IMG/VR virus record: IMGVR_UViG_3300037869_000010
Coordinates: 1-43,829 of that record
Origin: a virus
Lineage: Duplodnaviria; Caudoviricetes
Direction: 5' to 3' (one strand)
DNA length: 43,829 nt
Under the pieces are notes generated by a model. That model made no database searches. It saw only the letters and a program-made list of their open reading frames with translations, and was not told the DNA's origin. This document shows, piece after piece, positions 10,415 through 40,355 of the stretch. Position 1 is the first letter of the stretch, and each line of letters begins with the position of its first letter. The translations under genes and the position numbers were made by a program.

Positions 10415-10446
10415 AGGTTTTTTGGGGGGTGGTTGGGATCGTTAAA

Positions 10447-10893
10447 TCAGAGCGCGGCGAGTTGGGTTTCGATGGCAGCGCTGAGTTTCTCGCGGCCTTT
10501 AAGTTTGCTGGCGGCCTGGGCTGCGTCCGTGGGGGCTGCGTCGGGCTTGATGGCCAACGGAGGAACTCCCTGGGTGGCGGTGATCGCCGCGGCACGTACC
10601 GAGACGGTGGAGTCCACTTTGGCGGCGCTGGCAGCGGTGGCGGACGCGAGGGCGGCGGCGTCCGATGCCTGGGTCGCAATAGTGGCCTTGAGTGTGGAGA
10701 TCTCGACGCCTTGGGAGGCAACGAGCGCTTTGGCTGTGGCCAGGTCCGCGCGCGCGAGGGCGTACGCCTGGCGATCGGTCTCGAGGGCGACGGTGAGGTC
10801 GCTCACTTGTTTCTGGCTGGAAGCCAGAGCCTGGTCGATCGTGGCGCTGATTTTGCCCACGTTCGCGGTGAGGTCTTTAATGTCTTGGATCAT
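10447..10893 (-). CDS. putative scaffolding protein
   Basis: Ala-rich coiled coil immediately upstream of the capsid gene. Confidence 0.55.
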   Translation of the reverse strand: MIQDIKDLTANVGKISATIDQALASSQKQVSDLTVALETDRQAYALARADLATAKALVASQGVEISTLKATIATQASDAAALASATAASAAKVDSTVSVRAAAITATQGVPPLAIKPDAAPTDAAQAASKLKGREKLSAAIETQLAAL

Positions 10894-10953
10894 AGATTTG
10901 GTTGTGCGCCGGAGCGCTGCTGTCTAATGGAGGGCGGCGGAGTCAATGGGGGA

Positions 10954-11051
10954 AGAGGTCAGCGATCAGAGGTCAGAGGTCAGTCAGAGGGAGAAGAGGT
11001 CAGACGAAGAAGAGTCCGTCCTGACCTCTGACCTCTGACTTCTGACCTCTG
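10954..11051. repeat. heptamer hairpin element, family H
   Basis: Tandem CAGAGGT units and inverted ACCTCTG units; intergenic, next to a TTGACT motif. Confidence 0.85.
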
Positions 11052-11053
11052 TT

Positions 11054-11467
11054 TTACGCCTCGGGCGTGGGCGTGGGCGCGGCTTGGTCTTCGACCTTGG
11101 CGTCGCTGACTTCTAACTCGGCGGTCAGTGCGTCGGCGGCTTCGGTCAATTCCGGGGTGGCGTTGGGCTGGTTGCCCGCGGCTTCGAGGAGGTCCTTGAT
11201 GAGCTGGGCCTGCTTGTCTTGTTCGGATTCGATCTTGCCTAGCTTGGCGAGCGCGTCGCGCAGTTGCTGGGCTATTTCGGCTTGGGTTTTTGCCATGAGT
11301 TTTTCCAATCTTTGAAGGTCTTGTTTGGTTGCGAGATCGGCGTGGCCCTTCAACCACGCGAGCTCGAGGAGGGATGACAGATGACAGATGACAGATGACA
11401 GATGACAGACGAGGTCCCCTGACCTCTGACCTCTGACCTCTGGCCTCTGGCTTCTGTCCTCGTTCAT
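11054..11467 (-). CDS. coiled-coil hypothetical protein with a repeat-encoded N-terminus
   Basis: ATGA overlap with the protease stop; first ~32 codons come from heptamer repeats. Confidence 0.65.
   Translation of the reverse strand: MNEDRSQRPEVRGQRSGDLVCHLSSVICHLSSLLELAWLKGHADLATKQDLQRLEKLMAKTQAEIAQQLRDALAKLGKIESEQDKQAQLIKDLLEAAGNQPNATPELTEAADALTAELEVSDAKVEDQAAPTPTPEA
11373..11457. repeat. family H element (GATGACA x5, then CTGACCT units) within a CDS
   Basis: Directly visible tandem heptamers. Confidence 0.85.
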
Positions 11468-12273
11468 TTCAACAGTTGCGCGATCAGCTCGGCTTTGCTC
11501 GACACAATGCCGTCGATCAAGTTGCGTTCGAGGGCTTCCTTGGCCATGAAGGTCTGGCCTTGCATCGTGGCGTCGGTCACTACGCCGCGGTGCGCTTGCA
11601 CGTGGGCGGTGAACATGCCGTGGATGTCGTTGACGCGCTGCTGCAGGTGCGCGCGCTGGGCCTCGGTCATCTTGGTACCTGGAAATCCCGCGCCTTTGAG
11701 CGTGCCCGCGGTGATCAGGTCCACTTTCAAACCGCGCTTGGCCATGGCTTCGGTGGAATCAATGACCGGGAGGTAAACGCCAATCGAACCGATGTTGGCG
11801 GTCTCGGTGGCGAAAATGGCGTCGGCGCTGGCGCCGATCCAATACGCGCCGCTGGCCATCGAGCCGTCCGTGAATGCGTAAACGGGTTTCTTGATGCGGC
11901 CGATCTGGGCGCTTAATTCCGGAGTGCCCGTGACCATGCCGCCGGGGGAATCGATGTGGAGGAGGATGCGAGTGACGTTCGGATCAGCGGTGGCCACGTT
12001 CAGCTCGCGCGAGATGTCGTTGACGTCCACTGCGCCCGAGCCCTTTTCCATGCCGCTCAGTTTTTTGCCGATCACACCGCCGATCGGGATGTGGGCCATG
12101 CCATCGATGATGACCATGGATTCCATCTCGACGGCGTTGCCGCACGGGTCGGTCCCTTCGCGCTGAGTGTCAGCCAGGTGGGATTCGAGCAGGTGAACGA
12201 TCGCTGCGTGGCCAGCCTCAGTGATGAGCCAGGGCTGGAAATAAACTTGTTCGATGACGTGTTGGTAACGCAC
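11464..12273 (-). CDS. S49 family capsid maturation protease
   Basis: IDSPGG, MASGAYWIG, IGSIGV and GLIDGI-like motifs. Confidence 0.9.
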   Translation of the reverse strand: MRYQHVIEQVYFQPWLITEAGHAAIVHLLESHLADTQREGTDPCGNAVEMESMVIIDGMAHIPIGGVIGKKLSGMEKGSGAVDVNDISRELNVATADPNVTRILLHIDSPGGMVTGTPELSAQIGRIKKPVYAFTDGSMASGAYWIGASADAIFATETANIGSIGVYLPVIDSTEAMAKRGLKVDLITAGTLKGAGFPGTKMTEAQRAHLQQRVNDIHGMFTAHVQAHRGVVTDATMQGQTFMAKEALERNLIDGIVSSKAELIAQLLK

Positions 12274-12297
12274 TCACCTGAAGGGGGCGAAGTCAAC

Positions 12298-12413
12298 GTA
12301 GGACAGGCGTCTCGCCTGTCTGGTCCAAAGGCGCGTCAGAGCGCCGTTGGACAAATGGGGGTTCAGGTGGGAGTGGCTTGCCGCGGCTGTACCGCGGCTG
12401 ACAGGCGAGACGC
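12298..12413. repeat. REP family A element with truncated right arm
   Basis: GTAGGACAGGCGTCTCGCCTGTC at 12298-12320; GACAGGCGAGACGC at 12400-12413. Confidence 0.9.
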
Positions 12414-12415
12414 GT

Positions 12416-12955
12416 TTAAGCCACGGACCTGGTCTCGACTTCGGTCAGCTTGGGTTCTACGAAGAAGCTCTCTTCCTGGATGACGGCGACGCCGACGGCG
12501 GTCACATCTTCGGTAGTGAGGACTTTCTGGCGGTACGCAGCGAGGATTGCTTCCTTGTCGATCTCTTCCTTGGTGCGCACGTAGCCCAGGCCCCAGGTAT
12601 TTAACTTGAGAGCCGCCAGGACCATTTTCCAGGTCCATTTCTTGAGCTTCGCCAGCTTGGGTGTGCCCGTCCGGAAACCCACGGTGCCGTGCATGAACTC
12701 AATCGACTTGCGTTTGCCCTTGAATTCTTCGGGGTTCGCCTCGGCCCAGGCCTGCGCCACGGTGGTCTTTTCTTCGACGAGCTTTTTGAGCTCGCCTAGG
12801 TGGACGTCGTACTTCTCGCGAATGGCCTGCAGTTGGCGATCCATCTCCGCGCTGAGCTTGCGCTGCTCGATGGTCAGCGCGGCGATCTCGCCGACGAGTT
12901 CTTCCATCGCCGCGCGGCTCTGGATTATTGGGGAGGTGATTTTAATGCGGGACAT
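12416..12955 (-). CDS. gam: Mu Gam-like host-nuclease inhibitor
   Basis: Coiled coil then KSIEF.HGTVGFRTGTP, YVRTKEEIDKEAIL and QEESFFVEP; start moved to ATG 12955. Confidence 0.85.
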   Translation of the reverse strand: MSRIKITSPIIQSRAAMEELVGEIAALTIEQRKLSAEMDRQLQAIREKYDVHLGELKKLVEEKTTVAQAWAEANPEEFKGKRKSIEFMHGTVGFRTGTPKLAKLKKWTWKMVLAALKLNTWGLGYVRTKEEIDKEAILAAYRQKVLTTEDVTAVGVAVIQEESFFVEPKLTEVETRSVA

Positions 12956-13061
12956 GGGGAAACTTTTGTTTTCTATTTTCTGTCCCACGGTGCCAGCAAG
13001 ATCATGAGCAAGATCAGGAGGCAGAGGACTTCGATAGCTGCGCGTGACATGGCAAGTAATT

Positions 13062-13140
13062 GGAGCGCGGCGTTCACGCTGCTTCAGTGTCCGCAAGCCC
13101 TGGGCGTTTGTAAGATGAAGCGGCGTGAACGCCGCGCTCC
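13062..13140. repeat. 79-bp family B element, spacer in reverse orientation
   Basis: Same arms; spacer is the reverse complement of the copy-1 type. Confidence 0.92.
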
Positions 13141-13487
13141 GCAATCCGGCCCATCCGCCGTTTCCTGGCGGGGACAGGGGGCGCCGGAGGGCGGTTTTCT
13201 TTCAGGTGCTTTTGCCGCAGGCGCGTGTTTTTGCGACAGGCCCGGCGCTTGCGCATCTTCCTTTGCACCTCCCGCGAAGCGGCCAGCATGAGCCGGAGCT
13301 GGCTCTTGCACGTCGCCAGTTCGTTGCGCGCCATGCTTAACGAAATCCTGAGCTGATCGATCTCTGATTTAACAGAACCAGGTCCAGAGCCAGATCCAAC
13401 AGGAGGAAGCGGAGATAGCGGAGAAGAGGGAGAATTTTGATTTGTCTTCTCTGCTCTCTCTGCTTCCTCCTGTTCAATCTTCTTCAT
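13074..13487 (-). CDS. basic coiled-coil hypothetical protein with both termini repeat-derived
   Basis: ATG 13487 overlaps the end of the portal gene; N-terminus is family D and C-terminus runs into family B. Confidence 0.5.
   Translation of the reverse strand: MKKIEQEEAERAEKTNQNSPSSPLSPLPPVGSGSGPGSVKSEIDQLRISLSMARNELATCKSQLRLMLAASREVQRKMRKRRACRKNTRLRQKHLKENRPPAPPVPARKRRMGRIAERGVHAASSYKRPGLADTEAA
13394..13478. repeat. family D element
   Basis: AACAGGAGGAAGCGGAGATAGCGGAG ... CTCTGCTCTCTCTGCTTCCTCCTGTT; its edge overlaps the portal TGA. Confidence 0.9.
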
Positions 13488-15096
13488 TGCTGCCGCCCAT
13501 CCCAGGCGCTTGCGGCGCTTGCGGCGGCGCCTCGGCCAGTACTGTCGCCCCACCTAACTGATCCTGTTCCAGGCGCGCGAGGACGACGTCGATGGGCACG
13601 CTGTGCTTGTCCGCCTGGCGCCGGGCGCGCGTCAATAGATCGTCCACTTCCTTTTCCCGCATGTCGCGCACGTCCTTGAGGCTCTCGCCCCGTTCGGCGG
13701 TGGCTTTGGTCCGCGTCTTGATGCCGGTCCGGATTTCCTGGGCGTCCACGTCCGAATTATACTTGGCGTCGGCCGTCAACTTGGCCGGGCCCTGGAATTC
13801 CCACGCGTACCAATCGATGTCGAAGGGGAGCAGGCCGAGGGACGTCGGAGCGTCAGAGCGTCCAAGCGTGGAAGCGTTACGCTCCGAGGCTCCGACGCTC
13901 CGACGCTCTTCTGGCCGCTGCATCACGCAGGAGAGCGCATAGGAATTATATCGCCGGCAGGTCGGCTCGAGGATCAGGTCCTGATCGCTGCCGATCGAGC
14001 GGTTGATCTTGTCCACGCACACGCGCATCGAGGCGCCGCCGATCTTCGTGGGGTCCACGCTGAAATCGACCGACCAATCCAGGCCCGCGAAGTTGCCCCG
14101 GATCACGTCGGCCACGAAAGCGCTCTGGTTTGCCGTCGGGCGGTCCGCGATGTGCGCCTTGAGGCCCGAACCGCTCTTGCTCTTGAAATAGCGGATCATT
14201 CCCTTGTCGAATTTCTCGTATTGCAACCCGGTGGGTGTGCCGGGCTGGGCCACGCCGCCGGAGGCGTCCACCAGGTAGTCTGATCCGGGGACCGGTTCGC
14301 CCTCTTCGTTGTCTTCGCTTAAAATGATGCCGGCGTTGGCCACCTGGGACACGAGCTCGGCTTCTTGCCAGGCAAAGGCGTCTTGCCAGCGGTTCATGCC
14401 GGCGCCCAGGGTCGAGAAGCCGCGCAGTTGCCCGGCAAACGTCGGGATGAAGGTCAGGAACATGTCGCGCGCGCTGATGTCGGTGTACGTATCGAAGTCG
14501 AAGGGGTCACCAGTGATGATCCGGTAGGCGAGCGGGGCGCCGTAATCGTTGACGATCACGCCGTCGATGATCGCGGCGCCGTCATAGGCGCCGCCCGTGA
14601 CGGTTAATTCATAGGGCCGGCTGGCGATTCGATGGGCGGGAATGGTTTGCAGTTGGGGGTAGCCGTCTTCCCGCCGGGTGAGGAGGGTGCCGCAGTCTCC
14701 ATCACGATGCACCGCGATGATGAGGTTTCGGCGGTAGGTCCGTGCATTGTAGGGCCAGCCGGCCACATCACAAATTTTTCCATGCTCGTAAAGCCAGTCC
14801 TCCGCCAGTTCGCCCCACGCATGGTTCTTCCCCGTGTATTGAGCCAGGTAATGGCTCGAGGCGTACTCGGCTTTCTCATTCAAAGCACCCTTTACGATCG
14901 GGATGTTTGCGTAAATCCAGCGCCCGAGCGTCATCAAGGTTCTCCGGCCGAAATGGGAGATGTTTTTGTGGACGTCGCTGTCCAGCGCGGGGATCTGTTC
15001 GCGATCGGTGGTCTGCGTGGCCGCGCGGATGAGCTTGTTGTTCGAGTAGCCGCGGCTCGAGCGTTTCTCGATGAATTTGTAGGGGGCGGGGGTCAT
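13474..15096 (-). CDS. portal protein, lambda family
   Basis: RDGDC, DGVIVNDYGAPLAYRI, GQLRGFS and EIRTGIKT..AERG motifs; follows terL and the gpW-like gene. Confidence 0.85.
   Translation of the reverse strand: MTPAPYKFIEKRSSRGYSNNKLIRAATQTTDREQIPALDSDVHKNISHFGRRTLMTLGRWIYANIPIVKGALNEKAEYASSHYLAQYTGKNHAWGELAEDWLYEHGKICDVAGWPYNARTYRRNLIIAVHRDGDCGTLLTRREDGYPQLQTIPAHRIASRPYELTVTGGAYDGAAIIDGVIVNDYGAPLAYRIITGDPFDFDTYTDISARDMFLTFIPTFAGQLRGFSTLGAGMNRWQDAFAWQEAELVSQVANAGIILSEDNEEGEPVPGSDYLVDASGGVAQPGTPTGLQYEKFDKGMIRYFKSKSGSGLKAHIADRPTANQSAFVADVIRGNFAGLDWSVDFSVDPTKIGGASMRVCVDKINRSIGSDQDLILEPTCRRYNSYALSCVMQRPEERRSVGASERNASTLGRSDAPTSLGLLPFDIDWYAWEFQGPAKLTADAKYNSDVDAQEIRTGIKTRTKATAERGESLKDVRDMREKEVDDLLTRARRQADKHSVPIDVVLARLEQDQLGGATVLAEAPPQAPQAPGMGGSNEED
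13843..13908. repeat. family E element in frame within the portal gene
   Basis: Encodes ERRSVGASERNASTLGRSDAPT between SCVMQ and LGLLP. Confidence 0.85.
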
Positions 15097-15100
15097 TGGC

Positions 15101-15183
<83 letters not shown>

Positions 15184-15191
15184 GTGCTCAT

Positions 15192-15443
15192 TCAGTAGAT
15201 CACCTTCGTGCGCGTCACGCGCCGGATGTTCGCGAGCGGGTAATTCGTCGGGTCCAGCAGGTAAAGGGCGTAGAGCAGCCGTTGCATGCGCGTGGCGATG
15301 TCGTCCTGGACTTGCTTGCCCGTCGAGAGGTCGCCCGTGGTGACTGAGGTGGTGATTTTCCCGGCCGCGGCGTCGGCCTGAGCGCTGGCCAACTGTTCCT
15401 CGAGCCAGACTTGGGATTTACCTATGAAATAGTTGAGCGGCAT
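15192..15443 (-). CDS. gpW-like head-tail joining protein
   Basis: 83 aa between terL and portal with helix-hairpin-helix character. Confidence 0.6.
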   Translation of the reverse strand: MPLNYFIGKSQVWLEEQLASAQADAAAGKITTSVTTGDLSTGKQVQDDIATRMQRLLYALYLLDPTNYPLANIRRVTRTKVIY

Positions 15444-15466
15444 CTGTTAAGAGCGCTCAAGTCAAC

Positions 15467-15520
15467 GTAGGACAGGCGTCTCGCCTGTCTTGTCAACGGC
15501 GCGTCAGAGCGCCGTTGACA
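15467..15520. repeat. REP family A left arm plus inner hairpin
   Basis: Exact arm followed by TGTCAACGGCGCGTCAGAGCGCCGTTGACA; similar inner hairpins occur in the 12298, 33354, 34696 and 40234 copies. Confidence 0.9.
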
Positions 15521-15551
15521 AGCCCCGGCTTTGGCGTAAACCGGTCAAGTT

Positions 15552-15836
15552 ATGAAACTACAAATCGGAGTTACGGCGACTGGGCTGGACCTGGCCGCCG
15601 CTCTTGACGGAGATCAAGGGACATTCGTCTGCCAGCAGGGCGGGCAAACGTATCTGGTGGGCGCCAAGGAAGGCCATTCCATCAGCTACGGCCCCACCCC
15701 TATCGGCGTGCGCGTTGTCGAGGCCAACACCTCGAACAGCCTGTCACCAGAACCGTGGAAGATCACCAAGATCGCGGACAACGACATCACCGCGCAGTTC
15801 CGCCAGCAAACGCAGCGGCGGAATCTCGAAACGTAA
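15552..15836 (+). CDS. hypothetical protein antisense to the head operon (moron-like)
   Basis: 94-aa ATG ORF filling the gap between terL and the gpW-like gene. Confidence 0.55.
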   Translation: MKLQIGVTATGLDLAAALDGDQGTFVCQQGGQTYLVGAKEGHSISYGPTPIGVRVVEANTSNSLSPEPWKITKIADNDITAQFRQQTQRRNLET

Positions 15837-15845
15837 AAAGCTCAA

Positions 15846-15870
15846 GAGGTCAGAGATCAGTCTGACCTCT
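15846..15870. repeat. short family H hairpin
   Basis: AGAGGTCAGAGATCAGTCTGACCTCT between convergent genes. Confidence 0.6.
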
Positions 15871-15906
15871 TGCTCTCCAGCCTACGCCCGCGCGCAATGC
15901 AACGGC

Positions 15907-17817
15907 TCACGCTTCGACGCTTACTTCCTCCGTCGCCACGGCCGCCGTGTCCCCAATTATCCGCAGCATGAACGCCCGGGTGAGTGACATGCAACGACAG
16001 TCCCAAATGTGGTTATCCCGAAACTTTTTCCAGAACCATTTGCGCGTGGTGGGATTGAACTCTTTGCGCTCGCTGAACATTTGCCGCGCATAGGTCTGGT
16101 TCCACGGGCCCTTGAGCACGTACGCGCGCGCGCCGGCGTGCAGTGCGGCCGTCATCGAGTCGCGCCGGTCCGCGGCGACGCTCTTGATCCAGCCGTGGTA
16201 CCACACCACGATCGAACAGTAACGTCCGCGGACGTCCAGAACGCTCTTGTCGTCGTGCGCCAGGCCTTGGCAAGGGTCGCCCTTGGGCAAGGGCCAGACG
16301 TAGGGCATTAAGACGGCCTTGCCCTTCTGCGGGCCGTGCCGCGCTTTGTAATAATATCCGTCGCCGGCCTCGCCCTTGGCCGCGCGCCAGCATTGCCAGC
16401 GTTTCCCGCCAGGAACGGTTTCCCAGGTGCCGTTGCGGGTGCATTGAACGAATACGTCGTGCGGACGGAAGCGGCAATCGACGGTGACCAGGCCGTCCGG
16501 GACTTTGTGCTCCAGTTGCTTCGCGCGGACGTCCTCCCAGGTGACGAGCATCCCCGCCCAGAGGACAATGTCGTCGCCGGCGGCCGTCCAGGCCTCGACG
16601 ACTACCCAAAACCCGTACGTCTGCACGTCCACGGCCATCAGCAGGATCGTGAAGGTCTTGCCGTCGTGCACGACCGCGCCGTCCTGCGAGCTGGTGAGCT
16701 CGATGGTGGGGAACGTCTCGACGTCGTCGTGCAGCACCGGGTCATACGGGATGGCCATGCGCTTGAGCCAGAATTCGCGCAGGGGAATGCGATTGCCGAG
16801 CTTGGCTTGTTCCTTGGCGCGCAGGTACTCTTCGATCAATAAACCGAAGGAAATTTGATCCGAAGCGTGCGAAGGCCATTGAAAGGAGCGTTTGTCGCGC
16901 GGTGCGTTTGGGTTCGTCGGGACGTACCGAGCGTAATCGTTCATGTCGCGGCGGTTCTTGGGCGTGTCGAGGATCAGGAAGCTGCAGTTGACGCACTTGT
17001 AGGCGGCGCTGGCTTTCACGGCGTCGTAATTCCACACGCCGTCGGGCCGGGTCGTCGCGTCGGTGGTCCAGGTCATCCCGGCGTACGTGCCGTCTTCGCG
17101 GCGCACACTCCAACCGAATGGCTGGTAGAAATGGCACGCGGGACAGGGGAATTGCCAGGTCTCCTTACTGCCGGCTTCGTAGGCTTGATCGAGATCGTCA
17201 CCTTTCTCGCCGGCCTGGCTGATGTTGATAATCTTCGAGCGCCAATGGAAGTAAGTGGTCCGGGCTTTCGCGTGCAGATACATCCCTTGTTCCCACGACC
17301 AGAGTTCCTCGTTGATGACGAATGGAACGGAGTGGGTTTGGAGATTGCTCGGATGCGCGCCCTGGATCGCCAGCCACATGCTCGGGAAGTGAATTTCTTT
17401 TTTGCTCTTCTTGTGGGCGTGGATCTTGTCGAGCTGCGCGATGATCGGTGGACAGTTGTTAAGCAGCGGGACGGCGCGCCGCTTGGCGTAGTCCTCAGCC
17501 CATTCTTCGGTGGGGAAGTTCCAGAGTAAGTTGCCGGGGTTGTTGCAAATGATGTCGCACACGGTGAGGTCGCCGATGAGTGACTTGCCCGTTTGCACGC
17601 CGGCCAACACGGTGATCTCGCGCACGAGCGGATCGCGAATCGCATCGAGCGGTCCCATGAGGTAACGGGATTTCTCGACGTGGAAATATCCCGAGATGGC
17701 GTAACAGGAGGGGAGATTGACGTGAGTGGCAGCCCATTCGTAAATGGGCCGGCGGTCGAAGGGGCGCCAGGCCAGCCGCCACGCTTCGAGGATCTGCTCT
17801 TCGGGGAGAGGAGGCAC
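15907..17817 (-). CDS. terL: terminase large subunit, lambda gpA family
   Basis: Walker A AGVQTGKS, Walker B VINEE, CPAC..Q and YKC..C zinc motifs, nuclease AVDVQ and NHIWDC. Confidence 0.9.
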   Translation of the reverse strand: MPPLPEEQILEAWRLAWRPFDRRPIYEWAATHVNLPSCYAISGYFHVEKSRYLMGPLDAIRDPLVREITVLAGVQTGKSLIGDLTVCDIICNNPGNLLWNFPTEEWAEDYAKRRAVPLLNNCPPIIAQLDKIHAHKKSKKEIHFPSMWLAIQGAHPSNLQTHSVPFVINEELWSWEQGMYLHAKARTTYFHWRSKIINISQAGEKGDDLDQAYEAGSKETWQFPCPACHFYQPFGWSVRREDGTYAGMTWTTDATTRPDGVWNYDAVKASAAYKCVNCSFLILDTPKNRRDMNDYARYVPTNPNAPRDKRSFQWPSHASDQISFGLLIEEYLRAKEQAKLGNRIPLREFWLKRMAIPYDPVLHDDVETFPTIELTSSQDGAVVHDGKTFTILLMAVDVQTYGFWVVVEAWTAAGDDIVLWAGMLVTWEDVRAKQLEHKVPDGLVTVDCRFRPHDVFVQCTRNGTWETVPGGKRWQCWRAAKGEAGDGYYYKARHGPQKGKAVLMPYVWPLPKGDPCQGLAHDDKSVLDVRGRYCSIVVWYHGWIKSVAADRRDSMTAALHAGARAYVLKGPWNQTYARQMFSERKEFNPTTRKWFWKKFRDNHIWDCRCMSLTRAFMLRIIGDTAAVATEEVSVEA

Positions 17818-23074: not shown

Positions 23075-23392
23075 TTATGAAGCTTTTGAAGACCCGACAG
23101 ACGCGCCTGGGTCGTAACGGCCGGGACTCGCCTTGCGCTTAGTTGGTTTGACAGGCGCCACCGCCGGTAAATTTTCTTTCCGCTCGCTCGGCGGAAAAGC
23201 GTCCCCAATTGATTCCTTCTCCGCTGCTTCCAAGTCCCGCAAGGCCAGGTAACGCAGATAGCCACTGATCGTCTGCTGGCGCGAGTGTGCCCGTGCTCTG
23301 ATCTGCGCTAATAATTCGACATCGATGCTGATGGCGATTTGGGTTTGCCCTGGGCTGCGGTTTCTTTTTCTTTTTCTCGGGTCATTGGGCAC
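23075..23392 (-). CDS. ribbon-helix-helix regulator (repressor position)
   Basis: TQIAISIDVELLAQIRARA..TISGYLRYLA RHH pattern. Confidence 0.7.
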   Translation of the reverse strand: MPNDPRKRKRNRSPGQTQIAISIDVELLAQIRARAHSRQQTISGYLRYLALRDLEAAEKESIGDAFPPSERKENLPAVAPVKPTKRKASPGRYDPGASVGSSKAS

Positions 23393-23398
23393 GCGCCT

Positions 23399-23427
23399 AC
23401 AAGACCACGCCTCCCAATAGCTGTCAA
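23399..23427 (-). promoter_or_regulatory. sigma70-like leftward promoter
   Basis: TTGACA-17-TCTTGT with TGn extension, 6 nt before the GTG start; the -10 box is weak. Confidence 0.4.
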
Positions 23428-23458
23428 CATGAAATCGTATATTTGATATGATTGCACA

Positions 23459-23486
23459 TTGACAATCATAGGTGGCGTGATACGCT
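23459..23486 (+). promoter_or_regulatory. sigma70-like rightward (early) promoter
   Basis: TTGACA-16-TACGCT with TGn extension; ATG 7 nt downstream (leaderless). Confidence 0.65.
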
Positions 23487-23493
23487 CTTATTC

Positions 23494-23670
23494 ATGCCAA
23501 GCACCAAAAAACAAGCGAGGAAATTCAAATCCGTCTCCATCAATCTTGAAGAAGGCGAGGTTCCGAGGGTTCTGGACCGCGTTCGCAAGCAAGACATCAC
23601 TGTGAGCCAATACTTTCGGCGGCTCGTCAAAGAAGACCTCAAACGTTCCGAACAGGAAGTCGCCGCCTGA
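23494..23670 (+). CDS. ribbon-helix-helix regulator (Cro position)
   Basis: KSVSINLEE..VLDRVRKQDITVSQYFRRLV RHH pattern; start at ATG 23494. Confidence 0.7.
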   Translation: MPSTKKQARKFKSVSINLEEGEVPRVLDRVRKQDITVSQYFRRLVKEDLKRSEQEVAA

Positions 23671-26288: not shown

Positions 26289-26291
26289 AAA

Positions 26292-26386
26292 GAGCGTTGG
26301 CGCGTTGGAGCGTTGGAGCGTCAGAGCGTGCTGGCGCTTTTTCGAGGCCACGCTTCCGACGCTCCCACGCTCGGACGCTCCTGACG
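26292..26386. repeat. family E element
   Basis: GGAGCGTT/C units around core AGCGTGCTGGCGCTTTTTCGAGGCCACGCT. Confidence 0.85.
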
Positions 26387-26394
26387 CCCCCCCC

Positions 26395-27999
26395 ATGACC
26401 ATCAACCCCAAGCTTTACGGTGCCCGCGGCGACGGGCGGACCAATGACACGCCGGCGTTCCTGCGCGCGCTCGAGGCGCTGCGGGCCGCGGGCGGGGGCA
26501 CGTTGCGAATGCCGGCCGGCAAATATCTCCTGGAAAAAAGCGATGACGGTTACGCCCGCGAAGAGTACGAAGTCACCACCAACTCCGCGTTAGTCGTCGA
26601 TTTCGGCAACCTGGTTCTCCAGGGCGATGGCATGGGCCTGACCGTGCTCGAGGCTGCCAGCCCGACCACCACGCTGCTATTGGTCTCCGGACCGGACCTG
26701 CGCAACATTTGCCTGCGCGACCTGACTTTCGAGCAGCCCGACGCCGCGGCGGACTACGCGAACACTCAGACCGCGCGGACGCTCAGGGCGTCGGAGCGTC
26801 CGAGCGTCCGAGCGTCCGAGCGTGCTGGCGCTTTTTCGGAGCCACGCTCCGACGCTCCGACGCTCCGACGCTCTGACGCTGCCCCGGACGCCCTCAACTA
26901 CATCGACCAGGGCTGGACCCTCGGCACGATGATCTACCTCGAGGGCCGCGCCGGGCAGGCCATCAGCAACATCTCCATCACCAGGTGCGAACTGCGCAAC
27001 CCTGTCCGTCACGCCATCTGCCTGGCCTGGGCGAAGAACGTGCGCATCACCGACAACCTGTTCGCCTATTATGACGGATTTATTCCGCCCCAATATTCCG
27101 GGCACGCGAGCGGCGCCGGCCGGTGCGGCATCTTTGGCGGGGCGCCCTCCGTGCACGACGTCTTGATCAGCGGCAACAATTTCAACGGGAACGTCAGCGG
27201 CAAATGTCCCGTCGGCTCGAGCGCGACCGGATACGCGTACTGCGCCGCTGATGGTTTCGTGTGGCTGAGCCGCGGCGGCGGCGTGAACGTGGAAAACAAC
27301 ACCATCCGCAATTACGGTCTCGAAGCGATCCAACTCTCGGCCGCGCCCGCGCGCGTGCAGAACAACCAGTTTTACACCGAGACCGACACCCCGGGCGCCG
27401 TCGCGTGCTACGCCTATCCCTGTTCCCCGCGCGAGGACGACATCGAGCGCCCGCTCTTCACCTTCAGCGGCAACCAGGTTTACGGCGGGGGCGGCGGCTT
27501 ATGGACAAAAGGTCCGGCGCTGGTTTACACGAGCGAACTGCCCACGCCGCGCTGCCGGCTGATGGCCACGGGCAACATCTTCGAGAAGGTGGACGTCGTC
27601 TTCGCCGCGCTGAGCGCGGACGCATTCGTATGCTCGAACAACGTCGCGAGCGATTGCCGGCAATTCGTGTGTTACAACATCGGCCCGCTCGATGAGATGC
27701 ATCCGCGGCTGGATTTCCGGTGCCGCTACCTGAGCTTCATCGGCAACATCATCAACCGGTGCACAGACGTGCCGTTGCTTTTCAACGGGACCTTGGCGGA
27801 CGCCGGCGTGCTCGTGTTGATCGGCAACACCGTTGCGCGGGGCAATTACCACCTGGTGCTTGGCTATCCCAAGGAAGGGGAGACCTATACCGTAGTGGCC
27901 AAGGACAACGTCTGGGTCGCGCCCGACGGCAAGTTGGAAGCGGCGCCGGCGATCGCTTACACGCCGCTGCCGGCGTCCATCAAGTTCAGCCATGAGTGA
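26395..27999 (+). CDS. pectate-lyase-3-like beta-helix protein
   Basis: INPKLYGARGDGRTNDTPAF..GGGTLRMPAGKY signature; start at ATG 26395. Confidence 0.8.
   Translation: MTINPKLYGARGDGRTNDTPAFLRALEALRAAGGGTLRMPAGKYLLEKSDDGYAREEYEVTTNSALVVDFGNLVLQGDGMGLTVLEAASPTTTLLLVSGPDLRNICLRDLTFEQPDAAADYANTQTARTLRASERPSVRASERAGAFSEPRSDAPTLRRSDAAPDALNYIDQGWTLGTMIYLEGRAGQAISNISITRCELRNPVRHAICLAWAKNVRITDNLFAYYDGFIPPQYSGHASGAGRCGIFGGAPSVHDVLISGNNFNGNVSGKCPVGSSATGYAYCAADGFVWLSRGGGVNVENNTIRNYGLEAIQLSAAPARVQNNQFYTETDTPGAVACYAYPCSPREDDIERPLFTFSGNQVYGGGGGLWTKGPALVYTSELPTPRCRLMATGNIFEKVDVVFAALSADAFVCSNNVASDCRQFVCYNIGPLDEMHPRLDFRCRYLSFIGNIINRCTDVPLLFNGTLADAGVLVLIGNTVARGNYHLVLGYPKEGETYTVVAKDNVWVAPDGKLEAAPAIAYTPLPASIKFSHE
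26787..26880. repeat. family E element in frame within the beta-helix gene
   Basis: Same core as the 26292 and 40707 copies; encodes ASERPSVRASERAGAFSEPRSDAPTLRRSDA. Confidence 0.88.
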
Positions 28000-28279
28000 C
28001 ACGGCGAATCTCCATCCGCTGCCGCCGAGCAAATGCCCAACGTGCGGCTATGAGATGGATACGGTGCAGTGCTTCTATGACAAAGCGGCCCGCCCGGCGC
28101 CGGGCGACATCACTCTGTGCATGAAGTGTGGCGATCCACTCACCTTCACTGAGCAACTGACTCTACGAGCTGCGGACCTCAAAGACATGCTCGTACTAAA
28201 CGCCGACGCGGAGGCGAGCTGGCAGTTTAGGCGGACACAAAGCGCCATCCGCCGTTTACGGCCGCTTGAGAAGGAATGA
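27992..28279 (+). CDS. zinc-ribbon hypothetical protein
   Basis: CPTC and CMKC pairs. Confidence 0.6.
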   Translation: MSDTANLHPLPPSKCPTCGYEMDTVQCFYDKAARPAPGDITLCMKCGDPLTFTEQLTLRAADLKDMLVLNADAEASWQFRRTQSAIRRLRPLEKE

Positions 28280-28518
28280 AACCGGGAATGGTTAAGCGGG
28301 ACCGGAACGGTTTGACCAGGTGTCGCGTGTGCGGATGCACGGAGATGGACGCCTGCAACCCTCCATGCGGCTGGCAACCAGGTCAGGAGGACCTCTGCAC
28401 GAACTGCCATGAGACCGCAGCGTCAATTCATGAATGGCTGTGGTCGGCCCGGAGAGCAAATAGGGCGGCTCTTTGGCGCGAGGTTAAGCGCTATCAGACG
28501 CCTCGGGCACGGTCATGA
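28276..28518 (+). CDS. Cys-rich hypothetical protein
   Basis: CRVCGCT..AC..C.W..DLCTNC. Confidence 0.65.
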   Translation: MKPGMVKRDRNGLTRCRVCGCTEMDACNPPCGWQPGQEDLCTNCHETAASIHEWLWSARRANRAALWREVKRYQTPRARS

Positions 28519-28904
28519 GCACAGCGTTGGTCATGGACGAGACGGTGCGAAAACAGATTCGCGAACTGTGTGAACTGGCCGCGACGCAGCCCGTGGAAAT
28601 ACGCGAACTCCTAACAAACATCCAAACCCGCGAGGGGAAGAAACGTCACATGGAGCAAATGAGCCGGCAGACAATCGCAATTCCGCTGGGCTTCCTGGTC
28701 ACTTTCTCGATTGAACTCGGCCAGCCCTGTGGGACGTGCCGGCAGCGTGCCAAACGAGCACGCGCTGTGGATAGTCGCCCAGGAGTTCGGCTTCTGGGGC
28801 AGCCTCAAACAATGTTCGGTGTGGCCGGAACTACTGATTGGCCACGGCTACGCCATGAATGTGGTGCAACCTCTGGAACAAGTGCTAGTGGCCGAACGAT
28901 CTGA
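28515..28904 (+). CDS. hypothetical protein, possibly frameshifted near 28745
   Basis: Protein-like sequence appears to continue in the other frame (PNEHALWIVAQEFGF..MNVVQPL); stop lies inside an attC. Confidence 0.45.
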   Translation: MSTALVMDETVRKQIRELCELAATQPVEIRELLTNIQTREGKKRHMEQMSRQTIAIPLGFLVTFSIELGQPCGTCRQRAKRARAVDSRPGVRLLGQPQTMFGVAGTTDWPRLRHECGATSGTSASGRTI

Positions 28905-28985
28905 GATGAGAGAACCCGGCCACAACAACAGCCCCGACGACACTGAAAGTGTAAAGGCCGGGTTCTCTCCATCGAATGGTTCGGG
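28891..28985 (-). mobile_element. attC: integron attC site (distal)
   Basis: Minus strand CCCGAAC cattc GATGGAGA GAACCCGGC ... GCCGGGTTC TCTCATC tcagatc GTTCGGC. Confidence 0.85.
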
Positions 28986-29229
28986 GACTCGCACTCCCTA
29001 CGTGGGCTTCAGCAACCAAACGCTGGACCGGCTGCCGGCCGTGAAACCGGGAGACGAAATCACTTGTGGAGTCTGTGGGAAACGACATGCGCTGGAAGCG
29101 GCGGCGGATGGCAGCACGCTCCTCCTGTTCTACAAATGCGGGGAAACGCTCTACCTGGGGGCAGTAAGGGGCCGCTCAGTCGTGGGGCAAAAGGCGTTCA
29201 TCGGCAAAAGTACGACGGAGGACGGATGA
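28906..29229 (+). CDS. cassette gene, small CxxC protein
   Basis: ATG lies in the attC L' box; ITCGVCG motif. Confidence 0.6.
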   Translation: MREPGHNNSPDDTESVKAGFSPSNGSGTRTPYVGFSNQTLDRLPAVKPGDEITCGVCGKRHALEAAADGSTLLLFYKCGETLYLGAVRGRSVVGQKAFIGKSTTEDG

Positions 29230-29474
29230 GCAGCTACACGGACATCCTCAACAAGCGCGCCCGCACTTGGCCTTACGGCACGGAGAAGCAGGTCAAGGTG
29301 ATTCACGCCGATGAGAAGAAGCGATTCATAATTTGCGCTGACGGTGACAAGGAAGCTTACGTGCTCCTTTACACCGACACCGCCGATGCGAAGGAAAATG
29401 ACCGAGGCGTCATCACATTCACCCAAGGTGGCCCGCTGGGCGGCTACTGGAAGTTCACGCGCTCAGTGCTCTAA
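29226..29474 (+). CDS. cassette gene, hypothetical
   Basis: ATGA overlap at 29226; TAA lies within the R box CTCTAAC. Confidence 0.6.
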   Translation: MSSYTDILNKRARTWPYGTEKQVKVIHADEKKRFIICADGDKEAYVLLYTDTADAKENDRGVITFTQGGPLGGYWKFTRSVL

Positions 29475-29560
29475 CGCCAAAGCTCAATGACCCGGCCCAC
29501 CACGACTAGCAATTGCAACGAAACCGGACCGCCGGGTTCAGTTGCAGCGCATGGTTCGGG
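29469..29560 (-). mobile_element. attC: integron attC site
   Basis: Minus strand CCCGAAC catgc GCTGCAAC TGAACCCGGC ... GCCGGGTC ATTGAGC tttggc GTTAGAG. Confidence 0.9.
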
Positions 29561-29762
29561 CTTCGGGGTCGGTGACGCTGTGCTCGCGAAGGGCTGGTAT
29601 CGCAAAGACCGTCCGACGGATACCGAGTGTTTCGATTCGTGGCAATGGGGCTACGAATCGGCGATTGTCACCGCAGTCACGGAAACGGGCTATCAAGTTG
29701 TCACGGGCCACGGACACAACGCCTGGGTGTCGCGGGACGCTGCGAGAAGGCCGAACGCCTGA
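29487..29762 (+). CDS. cassette gene, hypothetical
   Basis: Starts inside its own attC and ends at a TGA in the next attC. Confidence 0.6.
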   Translation: MTRPTTTSNCNETGPPGSVAAHGSGFGVGDAVLAKGWYRKDRPTDTECFDSWQWGYESAIVTAVTETGYQVVTGHGHNAWVSRDAARRPNA

Positions 29763-29839
29763 GATGACAGACGGCACACCAGAAGCGGTCGAACCAGGAC
29801 AGGATGAACCTAGCCGTTCTGTCCAACGAATGGTTATGC
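29750..29839 (-). mobile_element. attC: integron attC site
   Basis: Minus strand GCATAAC cattc GTTGGACA GAACGGC ... GCCGTC TGTCATC tcaggc GTTCGGC. Confidence 0.88.
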
Positions 29840-30126
29840 CGCCCATCAGTGAAGAGTGGAAACAGCGGTTTGCCGCTAAAAGCAGCGACCATCAAGCCAC
29901 GCCATGCCCGAGCTGTGGAAGCCGCACAAGCTTTGTGATCGACACAAGAATACGACTGCGCGCCGGATACGTTCGGCGGCGGCGATTGTGCGAGTGCGGC
30001 CATCGCTACACGACCCGAGAATCTGTCGTGGAAGATAAATGCGCTAATCCTCCGAGTGCGCAGGAGTGCACAAGGGCGCTTCACGTAGTGCGCGAACTTA
30101 TCAACAAGCATCTCGGGGAGGCATAA
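29764..30126 (+). CDS. cassette gene, NrdR-like zinc ribbon without ATP cone
   Basis: CPSCG..VIDTR..VRRRRLCECGHRYTTRE. Confidence 0.7.
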   Translation: MTDGTPEAVEPGQDEPSRSVQRMVMPPISEEWKQRFAAKSSDHQATPCPSCGSRTSFVIDTRIRLRAGYVRRRRLCECGHRYTTRESVVEDKCANPPSAQECTRALHVVRELINKHLGEA

Positions 30127-30214
30127 CGACTGAGATGAAAGACCCGGCTCAAATCACACCTTCGACGACACCGAAAGTGTCCCAGCCGGGTTCTCTTCCA
30201 TCGAATGGTTATGC
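30121..30214 (-). mobile_element. attC: integron attC site
   Basis: Minus strand GCATAAC cattc GATGGAAG AGAACCCGGC ... GCCGGGTC TTTCATC tcagtc GTTATGC. Confidence 0.88.
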
Positions 30215-31112
30215 GTCCGGTCGAACTCATTTGGATTTATTTTCCGGCATCGGGGGCTTTGCTCTGGCCGCTCAGTGGACAGGCTGGCAAACGATAGCCT
30301 TCAGCGAAATAGAACCGTATGCGTGCAAAATCCTCAAGCGCCACTGGCCAGAAGTCCCCAACCTCGGCGACATCCGAAACGTGCGAGGCGTTCGCGCCGA
30401 CCTCATCACAGGGGGATTTCCTTGCCAGCCTTACAGCACTGCCGGCAAACGACGAGGCGCAAAAGATGACCGCGCGCTCTGGCCGGAAATGTGCCGAGTT
30501 ATTGAAGAGACAAGACCCGCTTGGGTGCTTGGTGAGAACGTGCCTGGAATCATCAATATGGAACTCGACCAAGTGCTTGCTGACTTGGAGCGCCTCGGCT
30601 ACGCCTGCTGGCCGCTTATTATTCCGGCTTGTGCCGTGGACGCCGGCCACCGAAGGGAACGAGTCTGGATTGTGGCCCACTCCGAACGTGTGCGGCGGCG
30701 GGAATCCACCCGAGATACTGACACCGCACAAGAATCACTTCATCCGCCCGAGCGGCAAGAAAGCGCATCTGGGACTCGACCAAGCCGTGAAACTTTGGCC
30801 GACACCGAGCGCGTGCGCAGCGCGACAGGGGCAGAACAATCCAGACGGGAAACGGGGACAAACTCTAATCGGCGCAGCGCGGGGTCAACTGTGGGCGACA
30901 CCGACGAGCCACGAACGGACTCACACGCAGCGACAGGTTCACCACGGCGAACAACTGGCGAACCAAGTCGGTGGGAGCCTGAACCCGAACTGGGTCGAGT
31001 GGCTAATGGGATACCCAATCGGTCACACCGCTTGCGAGGACTCGGAAACGCCATCGTCCCCCAAGTTGCAGCGGTGATCTTAGACGCGATGGCGAGGACG
31101 CATAACGCTTGA
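30135..31112 (+). CDS. dcm: cassette gene, C5 DNA cytosine methyltransferase (main chain)
   Basis: Motifs I DLFSGIGG, IV GFPCQ, VI ENV, VIII HRRERVW and X LGNAIVP; ATG lies in attC. Confidence 0.9.
   Translation: MKDPAQITPSTTPKVSQPGSLPSNGYASGRTHLDLFSGIGGFALAAQWTGWQTIAFSEIEPYACKILKRHWPEVPNLGDIRNVRGVRADLITGGFPCQPYSTAGKRRGAKDDRALWPEMCRVIEETRPAWVLGENVPGIINMELDQVLADLERLGYACWPLIIPACAVDAGHRRERVWIVAHSERVRRRESTRDTDTAQESLHPPERQESASGTRPSRETLADTERVRSATGAEQSRRETGTNSNRRSAGSTVGDTDEPRTDSHAATGSPRRTTGEPSRWEPEPELGRVANGIPNRSHRLRGLGNAIVPQVAAVILDAMARTHNA
30319..31077 (+). CDS. nested alternative-frame ORF, probable second methyltransferase chain
   Basis: 252 codons open inside dcm; LW(P/A)TP repeats and a motif-IX-like LNPNWVEWLMGYP; true start uncertain. 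Confidence 0.6.
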   Translation: MRAKSSSATGQKSPTSATSETCEAFAPTSSQGDFLASLTALPANDEAQKMTARSGRKCAELLKRQDPLGCLVRTCLESSIWNSTKCLLTWSASATPAGRLLFRLVPWTPATEGNESGLWPTPNVCGGGNPPEILTPHKNHFIRPSGKKAHLGLDQAVKLWPTPSACAARQGQNNPDGKRGQTLIGAARGQLWATPTSHERTHTQRQVHHGEQLANQVGGSLNPNWVEWLMGYPIGHTACEDSETPSSPKLQR

Positions 31113-31231
31113 GGTGACGGACCGGCTCGAAAGGCAAATATGACTGACGAAGAATTTGAAGCACACACCGCCAAGATTCGCGCTCACCAGGAGATACGGG
31201 AAGCCGGTTCGCGTCCAGCGAATGGTTCGGC
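31100..31231 (-). mobile_element. attC: integron attC site (proximal cassette)
   Basis: Minus strand GCCGAAC cattc GCTGGACG CGAACCGGC ... GCCGGTC CGTCACC tcaagc GTTATGC. Confidence 0.85.
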
Positions 31232-31382
31232 ATCGTTCACTCAAAACGCGATGCTGGTCCTTCTGCCAATCGCAGTTCTAATGGCGTTTGCTCTCCCGCA
31301 TAAGGCGGCGGCGGTTTTCCAGGCTGCCATTTGCGCGTTCTCGCTGGGGGTGAAAGTCGCCCTGCGGTGGGGCCGAGACTAA
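31140..31382 (+). CDS. cassette gene, small two-TM membrane protein
   Basis: Starts in the attC loop; hydrophobic C-terminal half. Confidence 0.55.
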   Translation: MTDEEFEAHTAKIRAHQEIREAGSRPANGSASFTQNAMLVLLPIAVLMAFALPHKAAAVFQAAICAFSLGVKVALRWGRD

Positions 31383-31384
31383 AT

Positions 31385-31421
31385 GCTGAACGCTGATTCT
31401 GCGACGAGCGGTTCGTATAAC
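31385..31421 (-). mobile_element. attI: candidate attI site
   Basis: Minus-strand GTTCAGC (31391-31385) nearly complements the R'' of the first cassette; no attC stem; second box GTTATAC at 31421-31415; adjoins the intI start. Confidence 0.6.
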
Positions 31422-31432
31422 TCAAAACCCAA

Positions 31433-32383
31433 ATGACGCGCACGGAAGCTATCGACAAGGCTCGGGATGTGATGCGGCGCCAACACAAGGCGATTTCGAC
31501 CGAGGAAATCTATCTGCACTGGCTGCGCCGCTACATGGCTGCCATCGGCCAGATGCCCAATGAGCTGGCCAGCGAGAAGAAGCTCGAACGCTTTTTGACC
31601 GAGCTCGCCCGCGCGCACGACGTGTCTGCCTCAACGCAAAATCAGGCGTTCAATGCCATTCTCTTTTTCTACAAGGATGTGCTCGGGCTTCCCCTCAAGA
31701 ACGTGGACGCCTTGCGGGCGTCGCGGCCGGAGCACTTGCGCCATGCGCCCACGCCAACCGAGACGCGCCAGTTGCTCGAGGCCGTTCGGGATGTGGCAGG
31801 TTATCCCACCAATCTCATCACCCGGCTGCTTTACGGTTGCGGGCTGCGGGTGAGTGAGCCGCTCAACTTGCGCATCAAAGACGTGCAAGTCCGCGAGACG
31901 AAACTTTTCATCCGGGGCGCCAAAGGGCGCAAAGATCGGGTGGTGGCGTTGCCTTGTTCGTTGGCGGAGGAAATCCGGGCGCAGATCGCTTTTGCGCGCA
32001 CGGTCTGGCAGCGGGACGCACAAGCCAGAATGCCGTTAGAATTGCCCCATCAATTGGCCGCCAAATATCCGGAGTATCGATTCGCCTGGCCGTGGGCCTG
32101 GGTGTTCCCGTCACGTTGGCCGTGCAAACATCCGCGCACCGGCCAGCTCGTGCGCTATCGGATGCACGAGGTCAATGTTCAGAGGGCCGTCAAGGAAGCC
32201 CGCCGGCGGATTGGCATCATGGTCCTGCCGCACGAACTGCGGCACGCTTACGCCACGCACACGCTGGATCGCGGGGTGAATGTCAAGGCCCTCCAACAGG
32301 CCATGGGGCATGCGGACGTCAACACGACGATGGGGTATTGCCACGCGGAAGCGTGCAGTGTGAAGAGCCCGCTGGATTCGTAG
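31433..32383 (+). CDS. intI: integron integrase
   Basis: FLTELA..VSASTQNQAFNAILFFY, LLYGCGLR, GAKGRKDR, HELRHAYATH and MGH..V.TTMGY, plus the IntI-specific insertion LPHQLAAKYP..W.WVFPS..HPRTG. Confidence 0.92.
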   Translation: MTRTEAIDKARDVMRRQHKAISTEEIYLHWLRRYMAAIGQMPNELASEKKLERFLTELARAHDVSASTQNQAFNAILFFYKDVLGLPLKNVDALRASRPEHLRHAPTPTETRQLLEAVRDVAGYPTNLITRLLYGCGLRVSEPLNLRIKDVQVRETKLFIRGAKGRKDRVVALPCSLAEEIRAQIAFARTVWQRDAQARMPLELPHQLAAKYPEYRFAWPWAWVFPSRWPCKHPRTGQLVRYRMHEVNVQRAVKEARRRIGIMVLPHELRHAYATHTLDRGVNVKALQQAMGHADVNTTMGYCHAEACSVKSPLDS

Positions 32384-32442: not shown

Positions 32443-32808
32443 TCATTTCTGGACGGGCCGGTTGGAATAGGCTTCGAGCGCCGCGGCGATCGCTTCGCGG
32501 ATCGCTTCGGTCTGGTTGTTCGAGTACCCCTTCAGATTGAAACGGCGCAGGCCGTTGGTGCCGAGGCCCGCCGTGTATTCCACGTCCTTGATCGCTTTGC
32601 GCGTGAATAGACTCGACGTGGCGAATGAAACCTTTTCCCCGCCCGGCTCCGTGCGCGTGTAGGACACCGAGGAGCAGCCCAAGAGCAGGAACAAGAGCAG
32701 GATTGAACAGGAGGCAGCAGAGCCAGCAGAGAAGAGGAAGAGGAGAATTGAATTTCTTTCTCTGCGCTCTCTGCTTCCTCCTGTTGGATCTAGTTCTGGG
32801 TGTTTCAT
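32443..32808 (-). CDS. predicted lipoprotein (spanin candidate)
   Basis: LLLFLLLGC lipobox; last gene of the late operon; leader includes a family D element. Confidence 0.55.
   Translation of the reverse strand: MKHPELDPTGGSRERRERNSILLFLFSAGSAASCSILLLFLLLGCSSVSYTRTEPGGEKVSFATSSLFTRKAIKDVEYTAGLGTNGLRRFNLKGYSNNQTEAIREAIAAALEAYSNRPVQK
32702..32789. repeat. family D element in the lipoprotein leader
   Basis: AACAGGAGGCAGCAGAGCCAGCAGAG ... CTCTGCGCTCTCTGCTTCCTCCTGTT. Confidence 0.9.
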
Positions 32809-40233: not shown

Positions 40234-40355
40234 GTAGGACAGGCGTCTCGCCTGTCTCTGCGCGCACGAAGTGCCGCGCAGGTTTGGGTTTTGACGGGGG
40301 TTGTCAACGGCGCTCTGACGCGCCGTTGACCAGACAGGCGAGACGCCTGTCCTAC
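40234..40355. repeat. REP family A element
   Basis: Exact arms; supplies the TAG of the receiver-domain gene. Confidence 0.92.

Follow-up and report, generated by a model that had tools for sequence, protein, structure and literature searches.

Integrons in Bacteria and in Phages

Integrons are bacterial devices that stockpile resistance genes, and according to recent preprints they reportedly stockpile anti-phage defence genes as well. Their integrase, IntI, recombines the folded bottom strand of an attC site with the attI site. Here, we describe an integron located at positions 28,891–32,383 of the IMG/VR virus record IMGVR_UViG_3300037869_000010; the window analysed is the whole record, 43,829 bases in length, and the locus is characterised from assembled sequence. 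It consists of the intI gene, an attI site and five attC cassettes, with the parts and polarity of an integron; however, its cassette genes are reversed relative to attC, and its array turns over among related phages with a breakpoint at the crossover. All this points to a phage-borne integron with reversed cassettes, whose own IntI would insert circles at attI and whose genes would be read from an early promoter; we estimate the probability of this reading at about 0.75.

The regular integrons (class 1 with intI1/attI1, and the Vibrio cholerae integron with VchIntIA, structure 2A3V) resemble the locus in the IntI insertion, in the position of attI just upstream of intI, in the R''/L''/L'/R' boxes of attC with an unpaired base in L'', in the attC top strand directed away from intI, and in cassette borders that indicate circle insertion. 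In the window, unlike these integrons, the genes lie on the attC bottom strand, are directed towards intI beyond the reach of the attI-side cassette promoter (Pc), and overlap attC in a fixed codon phase, while the platform is located in the early region of a phage. The inverted-integrase integrons (Treponema and others; PMC4889954, PMC13323075) share with the window an intI directed as the cassette genes, and the available sections of these two sources describe regular and inverted-integrase layouts only. In them, however, intI is on the attC strand and the genes are canonical, whereas the window intI (plus) is opposite to the attC top strand (minus) and the genes are flipped. The Verrucomicrobiota-type chromosomal integrons of our collection (L179, L194, L207, and L269) belong to the same IntI clade (57–70% identity) and have the same attI motif and attC boxes; they differ in their cellular flanks, canonical genes and, for L194, L207, and L269, near-uniform attC boxes. 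Synthetic protein-coding attC sites, in which one sequence is both a folded site and a coding region, were designed (Nivina et al. 2020, PMC7439510, in the part of the text available), while those of the window occur naturally, and many phages show such an overlap.

Integrons in phages have been described by Qi et al. 2023 (PMC9892861), whose text reports three complete integrons and 17 CALINs (attC clusters without integrase) in 10,705 phage genomes. Like the window, the complete ones are in temperate phages and the cassettes include DNA methyltransferases; according to the same text, they are host or class 1 integrons with IntI 75–95% similar to chromosomal ones, and the phage attC sites recombine with attI1. 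The statement of the preliminary description that no well-characterised example was known therefore does not hold for integrons in temperate phages. Genes antisense to attC are not described in the text of that paper, although its figures and Dryad annotation could hold reversed cases. Two of its phages, M16-3 and TJE1, were rescanned here as polarity controls and are canonical against the GenBank CDS strands, unlike the window. The available text of PMC8352920, PMC8876359, PMC13366799, and PMC13492144 contains nothing on the reversed layout, and it was not found elsewhere in the literature searched, in which few subscription journals were covered. Thus, phage-borne integrons are already known, and it is the reversed layout that was not found in print.

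The Integrase and the attI Site

The intI gene (31433..32383, plus strand) is the final gene of a rightward run and encodes a protein of 316 aa. Its score with the integron integrase model TIGR02249 is 286.9 bits (cut-off 265), whereas the XerC and XerD models give 99.6 and 99.4 bits, both far under their cut-offs. The closest solved structure is VchIntIA (2A3V, E 4e-47), to which residues 10–313 are aligned, including the IntI insertion. Both results place this second recombinase of the phage within the IntI family and not outside it, in agreement with the preliminary description. The residues R139, K164, H267, R270, H293, and Y302, which we take to be the catalytic set of the tyrosine recombinase, are invariant in all 11 aligned relatives. 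The gene belongs to a 10-member cluster at 90% identity, eight members of which are 316–339 aa in length.

The attI site (31385..31403, minus strand), identified by the recurrence of its motif in relatives, includes an R box (31385–31391), a 5-bp spacer, and an L box. It is 48 bp before intI; in most viral members of the clade the motif is located 36–75 bp before the gene. The crossover is predicted between 31390 and 31391, and it is there that the identity to a cassette of the related locus L208 ends. The distance from intI to the nearest attC is 202 bp, so the array is not a CALIN. A candidate intI promoter (31392..31432, plus strand), with a -35-like hexamer in the attI spacer, 17 bp, a -10-like hexamer, and a degenerate palindrome, can be seen by eye in the window and in L174, L179, and L208; it was not recovered by the promoter scan. 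A palindrome with a 5-base gap before intI is present in the window (31392–31420, degenerate) and in L090, L093, L179, L186, L223, and L224, being clearest in the cellular members; possibly, it is a repressor or IntI binding site.

The attC Sites

The top strands of the five attC sites are all on the minus strand: 31100..31231 (cassette 1, 132 bp, Infernal score 24 bits), 30121..30214 (cassette 2, 94 bp, 35.4 bits), 29750..29839 (cassette 3, 90 bp, 45.3 bits), 29469..29560 (cassette 4, 92 bp, 42.2 bits), and 28891..28985 (cassette 5, 95 bp, 33 bits). Their parts of 5, 8, 7, and 6–7 nt are as originally described, the sites have R and L boxes, an unpaired spacer, and an extrahelical base, and the hairpins fit the attC models, since three models, all built in this analysis, recover the five sites. 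The first, a box-plus-stem scanner whose training set included these five sites, finds them as the sole window matches at a score ≥6 (scores 24–33); in 1.95 Mb of locus sequence re-created with an order-3 Markov model, nothing reached a score of 12. The second model, for which only bacterial sites were used in training (95 sites from 69 loci), returns the same five. The Infernal model, built from 27 sites outside the viral collection that had been chosen by the scanner, detects all five with the bottom strand on plus (24–45 bits, E 2e-8 to 2e-3) and nothing else in the 43.8-kb contig up to E 1.

An initial strict hairpin scan recovered one of the five sites and mostly unrelated palindromes, and the trained models were used instead. 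The excess of L-box pairing over shuffled sequences is partly inherent in the detector and was discounted as evidence. The complementarity of the R boxes bounding each cassette, expected for circular intermediates, is 6, 7, 7, 6, and 5 of 7 bases across the five circular cassettes; it stands as claimed for four of them and is weaker for the fifth. The half-site motif has nine copies in the window: five in attC, one at 28284..28297 (minus strand), and three elsewhere. The copy at 28284..28297 is at the start of the ORF 28276–28518 and, judging from this weak motif, might be a remnant of an attC half-site.

Cassette Genes of the Window

Every cassette gene is on the plus strand and is directed towards intI, whereas the attC top strand is minus and is directed away from it. 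Cassette 1 (31106–31390) contains a gene (31140..31382, plus) that starts in the attC loop and encodes an 80-aa protein with a hydrophobic C-terminal half, an exact copy of which is public. Cassette 2 (30127–31105) encodes a C5-cytosine DNA methyltransferase, Dcm (30135..31112, plus; PF00145, 7e-43; TIGR00675, above cut-off; phrog_363), whose start codon was assigned in this analysis in the L' box of attC; an overlapping second-frame ORF (30319–31077) matches phrog_1008. Cassette 3 (29756–30126) encodes a 120-aa NrdR-like zinc ribbon (29764..30126, plus; PF22811, E 1.2e-9); its start was assigned here within attC and its stop codon ends at the crossover. In cassette 4 (29475–29755), the gene of a 91-aa protein with no family (29487..29762, plus) starts in its own attC and receives its stop codon from the next cassette; the search for relatives of this protein found its exact public copy only. 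Cassette 5 (28897–29474) contains two overlapping ORFs, distinguished by their translations (28906..29474, plus): 28906–29229 (107 aa, with a cysteine motif; start assigned here) and 29226–29474 (82 aa), the latter having one relative (65%). Two cassette genes that were searched in viral contigs have no relatives there.

The Dcm and zinc-ribbon matches are both on the plus strand, i.e., the attC bottom strand, and the same is true for all window genes with a family match or a public record; the exact sequences of three cassette proteins are public, and they correspond to plus-strand ORFs. These family matches bear out the phage-type cargo suggested earlier. As for the complete integron architecture, intI, attI, and attC are as proposed, while the textbook layout is not, since the genes are reversed relative to attC. 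Consequently, the genes are unreadable from a Pc promoter at the attI side, and the Pc-direction feature of a regular integron is absent from the window; the promoter scan found no minus-strand consensus promoter. Judging from the sequence, the element would work like an integron: it has the recombination features that could be examined and departs from a regular integron in the direction relative to Pc.

Outside the array, a 95-aa cysteine-rich gene without attC (27992..28279, plus) shares 61% identity with a gene that L174 carries in a complete cassette bounded by attC, and it is likely a former cassette. Before the last attC, two overlapping ORFs (28515–28905) resemble one gene split by a frameshift or deletion, and the second frame extends through attC into cassette 5. 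A nine-codon ORF (31114–31143) in the long attC begins one base past the Dcm stop, and its own stop and the cassette 1 start overlap. Such an ORF could carry ribosomes over the attC hairpin.

Reversed Orientation in Related Loci

Two scans of viral contigs yielded 77 loci after 12 repeats were dropped, with near-identical pairs remaining; 50 of them have attC upstream of intI in the polarity of the window, and 40 have two or more such sites. The scan of bacterial genomes covered 9 of 64 parts, and 80 loci were kept. When counted by locus, 40 of the 42 related viral loci are mostly reversed, whereas 16 of the 20 bacterial ones are mostly canonical. A codon score classified 125 of 147 viral cassettes as reversed, 20 as unclear, and two as canonical, against 34 canonical, ten unclear, and two reversed among 46 bacterial cassettes. 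The longest ORF is on the bottom strand in 119 of the 147 viral cassettes versus one of the 46 bacterial cassettes. When the longest ORFs of 128 viral cassettes were compared with PHROG families, 33 of the matching ORFs were bottom-strand and one was top-strand; the 33 include ten DNA methyltransferases, two Mom-like and two PAPS-reductase-like proteins, three HNH/homing nucleases, and one Lar-like protein. In the nine viral loci that were annotated, the surrounding phage genes differ; among them are RecT, exonuclease, and helicase genes, a Mu-type transposition gene, and a terminase gene.

The sole top-strand PHROG match belongs to L056:4587-6529, the one viral locus called canonical, which may be a captured host array. 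Some viral contigs (L009:579-1674, L024, L077, and L008) have an additional attC array at a distance from intI, either downstream or of opposite polarity, the genes of which are also mostly reversed.

The attC Sites as Coding Sequences

The genes of the window start within attC, and all but the cassette 1 gene end in the next attC. The attC bottom strand would thus double as a coding sequence that provides start codons, N-terminal residues, and often the stop of the preceding gene. Among 116 reversed cassettes, the last ORF continues past the crossover in 74, and in 72 of these it reads the crossover triplet as a codon; it terminates in the R box in 24 cassettes and ahead of the site in 18. 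A bottom-strand ATG in attC with the frame open for 120 nt beyond it was found in 90 of 135 phage sites versus 10 of 84 bacterial ones. As the crossover triplet is kept in one codon phase, a cassette swap would leave the neighbouring genes translatable.

Signs of Cassette Traffic Among Related Phages

In the clade of the window, comparison of the four variable bases of R'' showed agreement with R' of the preceding site for 71 of 86 cassettes, with R' of the same cassette for nine, and with that of the opposite neighbour for seven. The corresponding numbers for 30 cassettes of bacterial arrays are 25, three, and two. An offset of this kind is expected when circles insert at the usual crossover. 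It also bears on the assumption that ordinary cassettes were inserted backwards through top-strand recombination, which is known at low frequency and inverts the cassette (PMC5027507, in the part of the text available). Such an event would flip the gene and attC together, whereas in the window only the gene is reversed, the polarity of attC to attI and intI is canonical, and the direction of the R-box offset is canonical too; we consider this explanation very improbable.

Closely related arrays differ in content. The L208 phage has an IntI 97% identical over 153 residues and shares the excisionase-like and 84-aa genes with the window; in its array, the first cassette of the window is at the far end (96.6% DNA identity, attC partly deleted), followed by four other attC sites and attI, and the identity between the two breaks off at the crossover. 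One of these L208 sites, with different cargo, is 79% identical to the attC of cassette 4. The IntI of L174 is 87% identical, and six attC sites with other cargo were detected in this locus. The Dcm cassette recurs with 77–81% identity in L018, whose IntI is 60% identical. Comparison of 136 cassette interiors gave only three cross-locus matches. The related phages with near-identical intI and other cassettes, sought in the preliminary description, are thus L208 and L174, and the arrays of L208, L174, and L018 are not invariant. The contribution of this locus is the evidence for turnover at the near-strain level, together with a cassette gene that here lacks its attC. The earlier proposal of an integron that serves the phage itself in capturing and shuffling accessory genes is supported, as far as sequences can indicate, by IntI, the attC models, the linked assemblies, and the differing arrays.

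The same assemblies make a chimera of a host integron and a phage hardly credible. The contig is indeed a metagenomic virus record that starts and ends in a repeat element; however, in the separate assemblies L208 and L174, an array and a near-identical intI are likewise linked with the excisionase-like or the 84-aa gene of the window; in L175, intI is continuous with the downstream stretch seen in the window, and the layout recurs in viral contigs of other architectures.

Phylogeny of IntI and the Putative Host

All IntI trees are quick trees. In the tree of 153 rows, the window IntI is in a clade of 43 rows (SH-aLRT 99), 34 of which are viral and nine of which are Verrucomicrobiota. Close IntIs amid cellular genes are represented by several Verrucomicrobiota rows and more from metagenomes. 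The reading considered first, a clade of phage IntIs only, was ruled out, since members with cellular context are nested within it. In a hand-picked set of 46 rows, the groups of which were fixed after earlier trees had been seen, the context switches between phage and cellular at least six times, and monophyly is rejected both for the phage rows (AU p 4.5e-5) and for the cellular rows (p 1.3e-4). With three bacterial IntIs as the outgroup, the deepest branches are mostly viral, although viral sequences were sampled far more fully; such branching would fit seeding from phages to hosts. Among 50,697 GenBank phage records, nine have an IntI match, none above 40%. A separate observation concerns the GenBank virus Rctr41k (L275, KX853513), in which an IntI-like gene (4680–5678, 40%), annotated as xerD, is in line with small early genes; no attC match was detected in it.

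The cellular arrays L179, L194, L207, L269, and L197 share the attI motif or attC boxes with the window, and their genes are canonical; Pfam matches in 22 cassettes of cellular context are on the top strand in four and on the bottom strand in none. Since related IntIs keep canonical cassettes in cellular contexts, orientation follows the replicon and not the enzyme. The host is likely a Verrucomicrobiota bacterium, with chromosomal integrons that have the same kind of IntI, attI, and attC and genes in the usual direction.

The interleaving of cellular and phage members in the tree, with the rejected monophyly of the latter, would agree with a single acquisition of part of a host chromosomal integron that has since been a passive passenger, a route published for Vibrio and Shewanella prophages (PMC9892861, from the text). 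This explanation is already disfavoured and looks improbable, as host-type arrays are canonical while the window genes are all reversed and phage-like, and as the arrays differ between phages with IntIs 87–97% identical and the same flanks, with the breakpoint at the crossover.

The main rival supposes that the array is real and mobile, but that a host chromosomal IntI acts in trans, the phage intI being dispensable or rarely expressed. Several facts are in line with it: cellular contexts contain close IntIs (L179, 70%) whose attI motif and attC family are those of the window, a bacterial IntI1 accepts phage attC sites as substrates according to the text of PMC9892861, and the relative L011 has a frameshifted intI. 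On the other hand, the window intI is full-length, with invariant catalytic positions and membership in the 10-member cluster; the gene stays joined to attI in most viral relatives; and a survey of 301 genomes from the candidate host order (the nearest order) gave a close IntI, amid cellular genes, for only 10. We regard action in trans as unlikely.

Proposed Mode of Action

In the preferred reading, the phage IntI would use the normal folded-strand reaction to place circular cassettes at attI, and their genes would be read from a rightward early promoter within a plus-strand run that extends from the ORF pair at about 23,400 to intI. New cassettes would enter beside intI, where the run is most distant from its promoter, and the older ones would shift towards the early genes, where they might sometimes lose attC and become fixed phage genes. 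Methylase-rich cargo would fit protection from host restriction.

Several results weigh against this reading. Minimum-energy DNA folding gave the full bottom-strand hairpin in only two of the five sites, and the folding energies indicated no clear bottom-strand advantage, four of the five folded windows being off by one base. If the window is taken by itself, the offset between R boxes shows only weakly: 31 of 35 bases match, versus 28 for own sites. The start codons assigned here for three window genes differ from the public record, and the codon classifier placed the best start within the upstream attC for only 33 of 116 cassettes. This classifier was correct in 411 of 514 held-out fragments, left two of four window cassettes unclear, and called some cellular cassettes of L195, L197, and L207 reversed where the longest ORF is canonical. 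Because of near-identical pairs, the counts in the viral set are not independent events. The promoter scan of 9.8 kb gave one site versus 2.2 expected by chance. As 95 of 128 viral cassette genes have no PHROG family, a counter-defence role rests on a minority of them. Finally, a search of 401 genomes from the suggested host order with the terminase gave no match at E 1e-100.

A wider scenario is that phages keep a mirror-image integron world, in which the phage form is the older one in the IntI clade and has seeded the chromosomal integrons of Verrucomicrobiota several times, while far-end cassettes lose attC and become early genes. We propose it only tentatively, as a possible but rather doubtful extension.

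Genome Setting

Terminase, portal, and capsid genes of a tailed phage were found in the window by family searches; the head module (capsid, S49 protease, portal, large terminase) occupies 9470..17817 on the minus strand. Four terminase relatives (80–84% identity) are on short contigs that stop before the integron. The first tyrosine recombinase is the phage integrase (20601..21908, minus; phrog_1, E 4e-21), and an excisionase-like ORF (25756–26037, plus), identified from its translation, has a weak match to phrog_66 (E 2e-4). These are features of temperate phages, and the phage is likely temperate. A pair of divergent small ORFs, identified from translations (23075..23670; 23075–23392 minus, 23494–23670 plus), is likely a regulatory switch heading the rightward gene run; a Pfam search with them gave no match. 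The single consensus promoter of the scan, at 23424–23452, and the terminator scan are at chance level, and Rfam and tRNA scans of the window gave no matches. Comparison of the window ends revealed no terminal repeat; the contig both starts and finishes within a repeat element.

The 406-aa gene adjoining intI has no relatives in viral contigs. A 588-aa beta-helix (pectate-lyase-like) gene (26233–27999) is within the rightward run, and L208 and L174 lack it there; the early run also contains a radical SAM gene (24521–25759; PA0069-like, below cut-off). A Mu Gam-like end-protection gene (12416–13144) is located between the portal and head protease genes, and a response-regulator receiver gene (40352–40816) is amid the late genes. 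Near-perfect palindromes of 80–108 bp were noted at 3986–4093, 8793–8880, 13394–13478, 23921–24000, 25334–25424, and 32702–32789; some are within ORFs, and they have AAC/GTT ends, yet no attC score. They presumably resemble the REP-type elements of hosts. Of two further short repeat families, one is at the start and end of the contig.

Implications

A phage integron with its own integrase and methylase-rich cargo would place the same machine on the other side of the conflict. The reversed layout changes the logic of expression, as the likely promoter would be most distant from the most recent cassette, and the phage arrays provide natural protein-coding attC sites. If the mirror-image scenario is true, phages and hosts would have the chemistry of IntI, attI, and attC in common, while gene direction would separate their cassette pools, so that a cassette crossing over would land silent, and the integron would be a source of the small unexplained genes in the early regions of phages. 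The locus indicates a route by which phages could gain and fix small accessory genes, and close relatives with different arrays make each of its steps testable.

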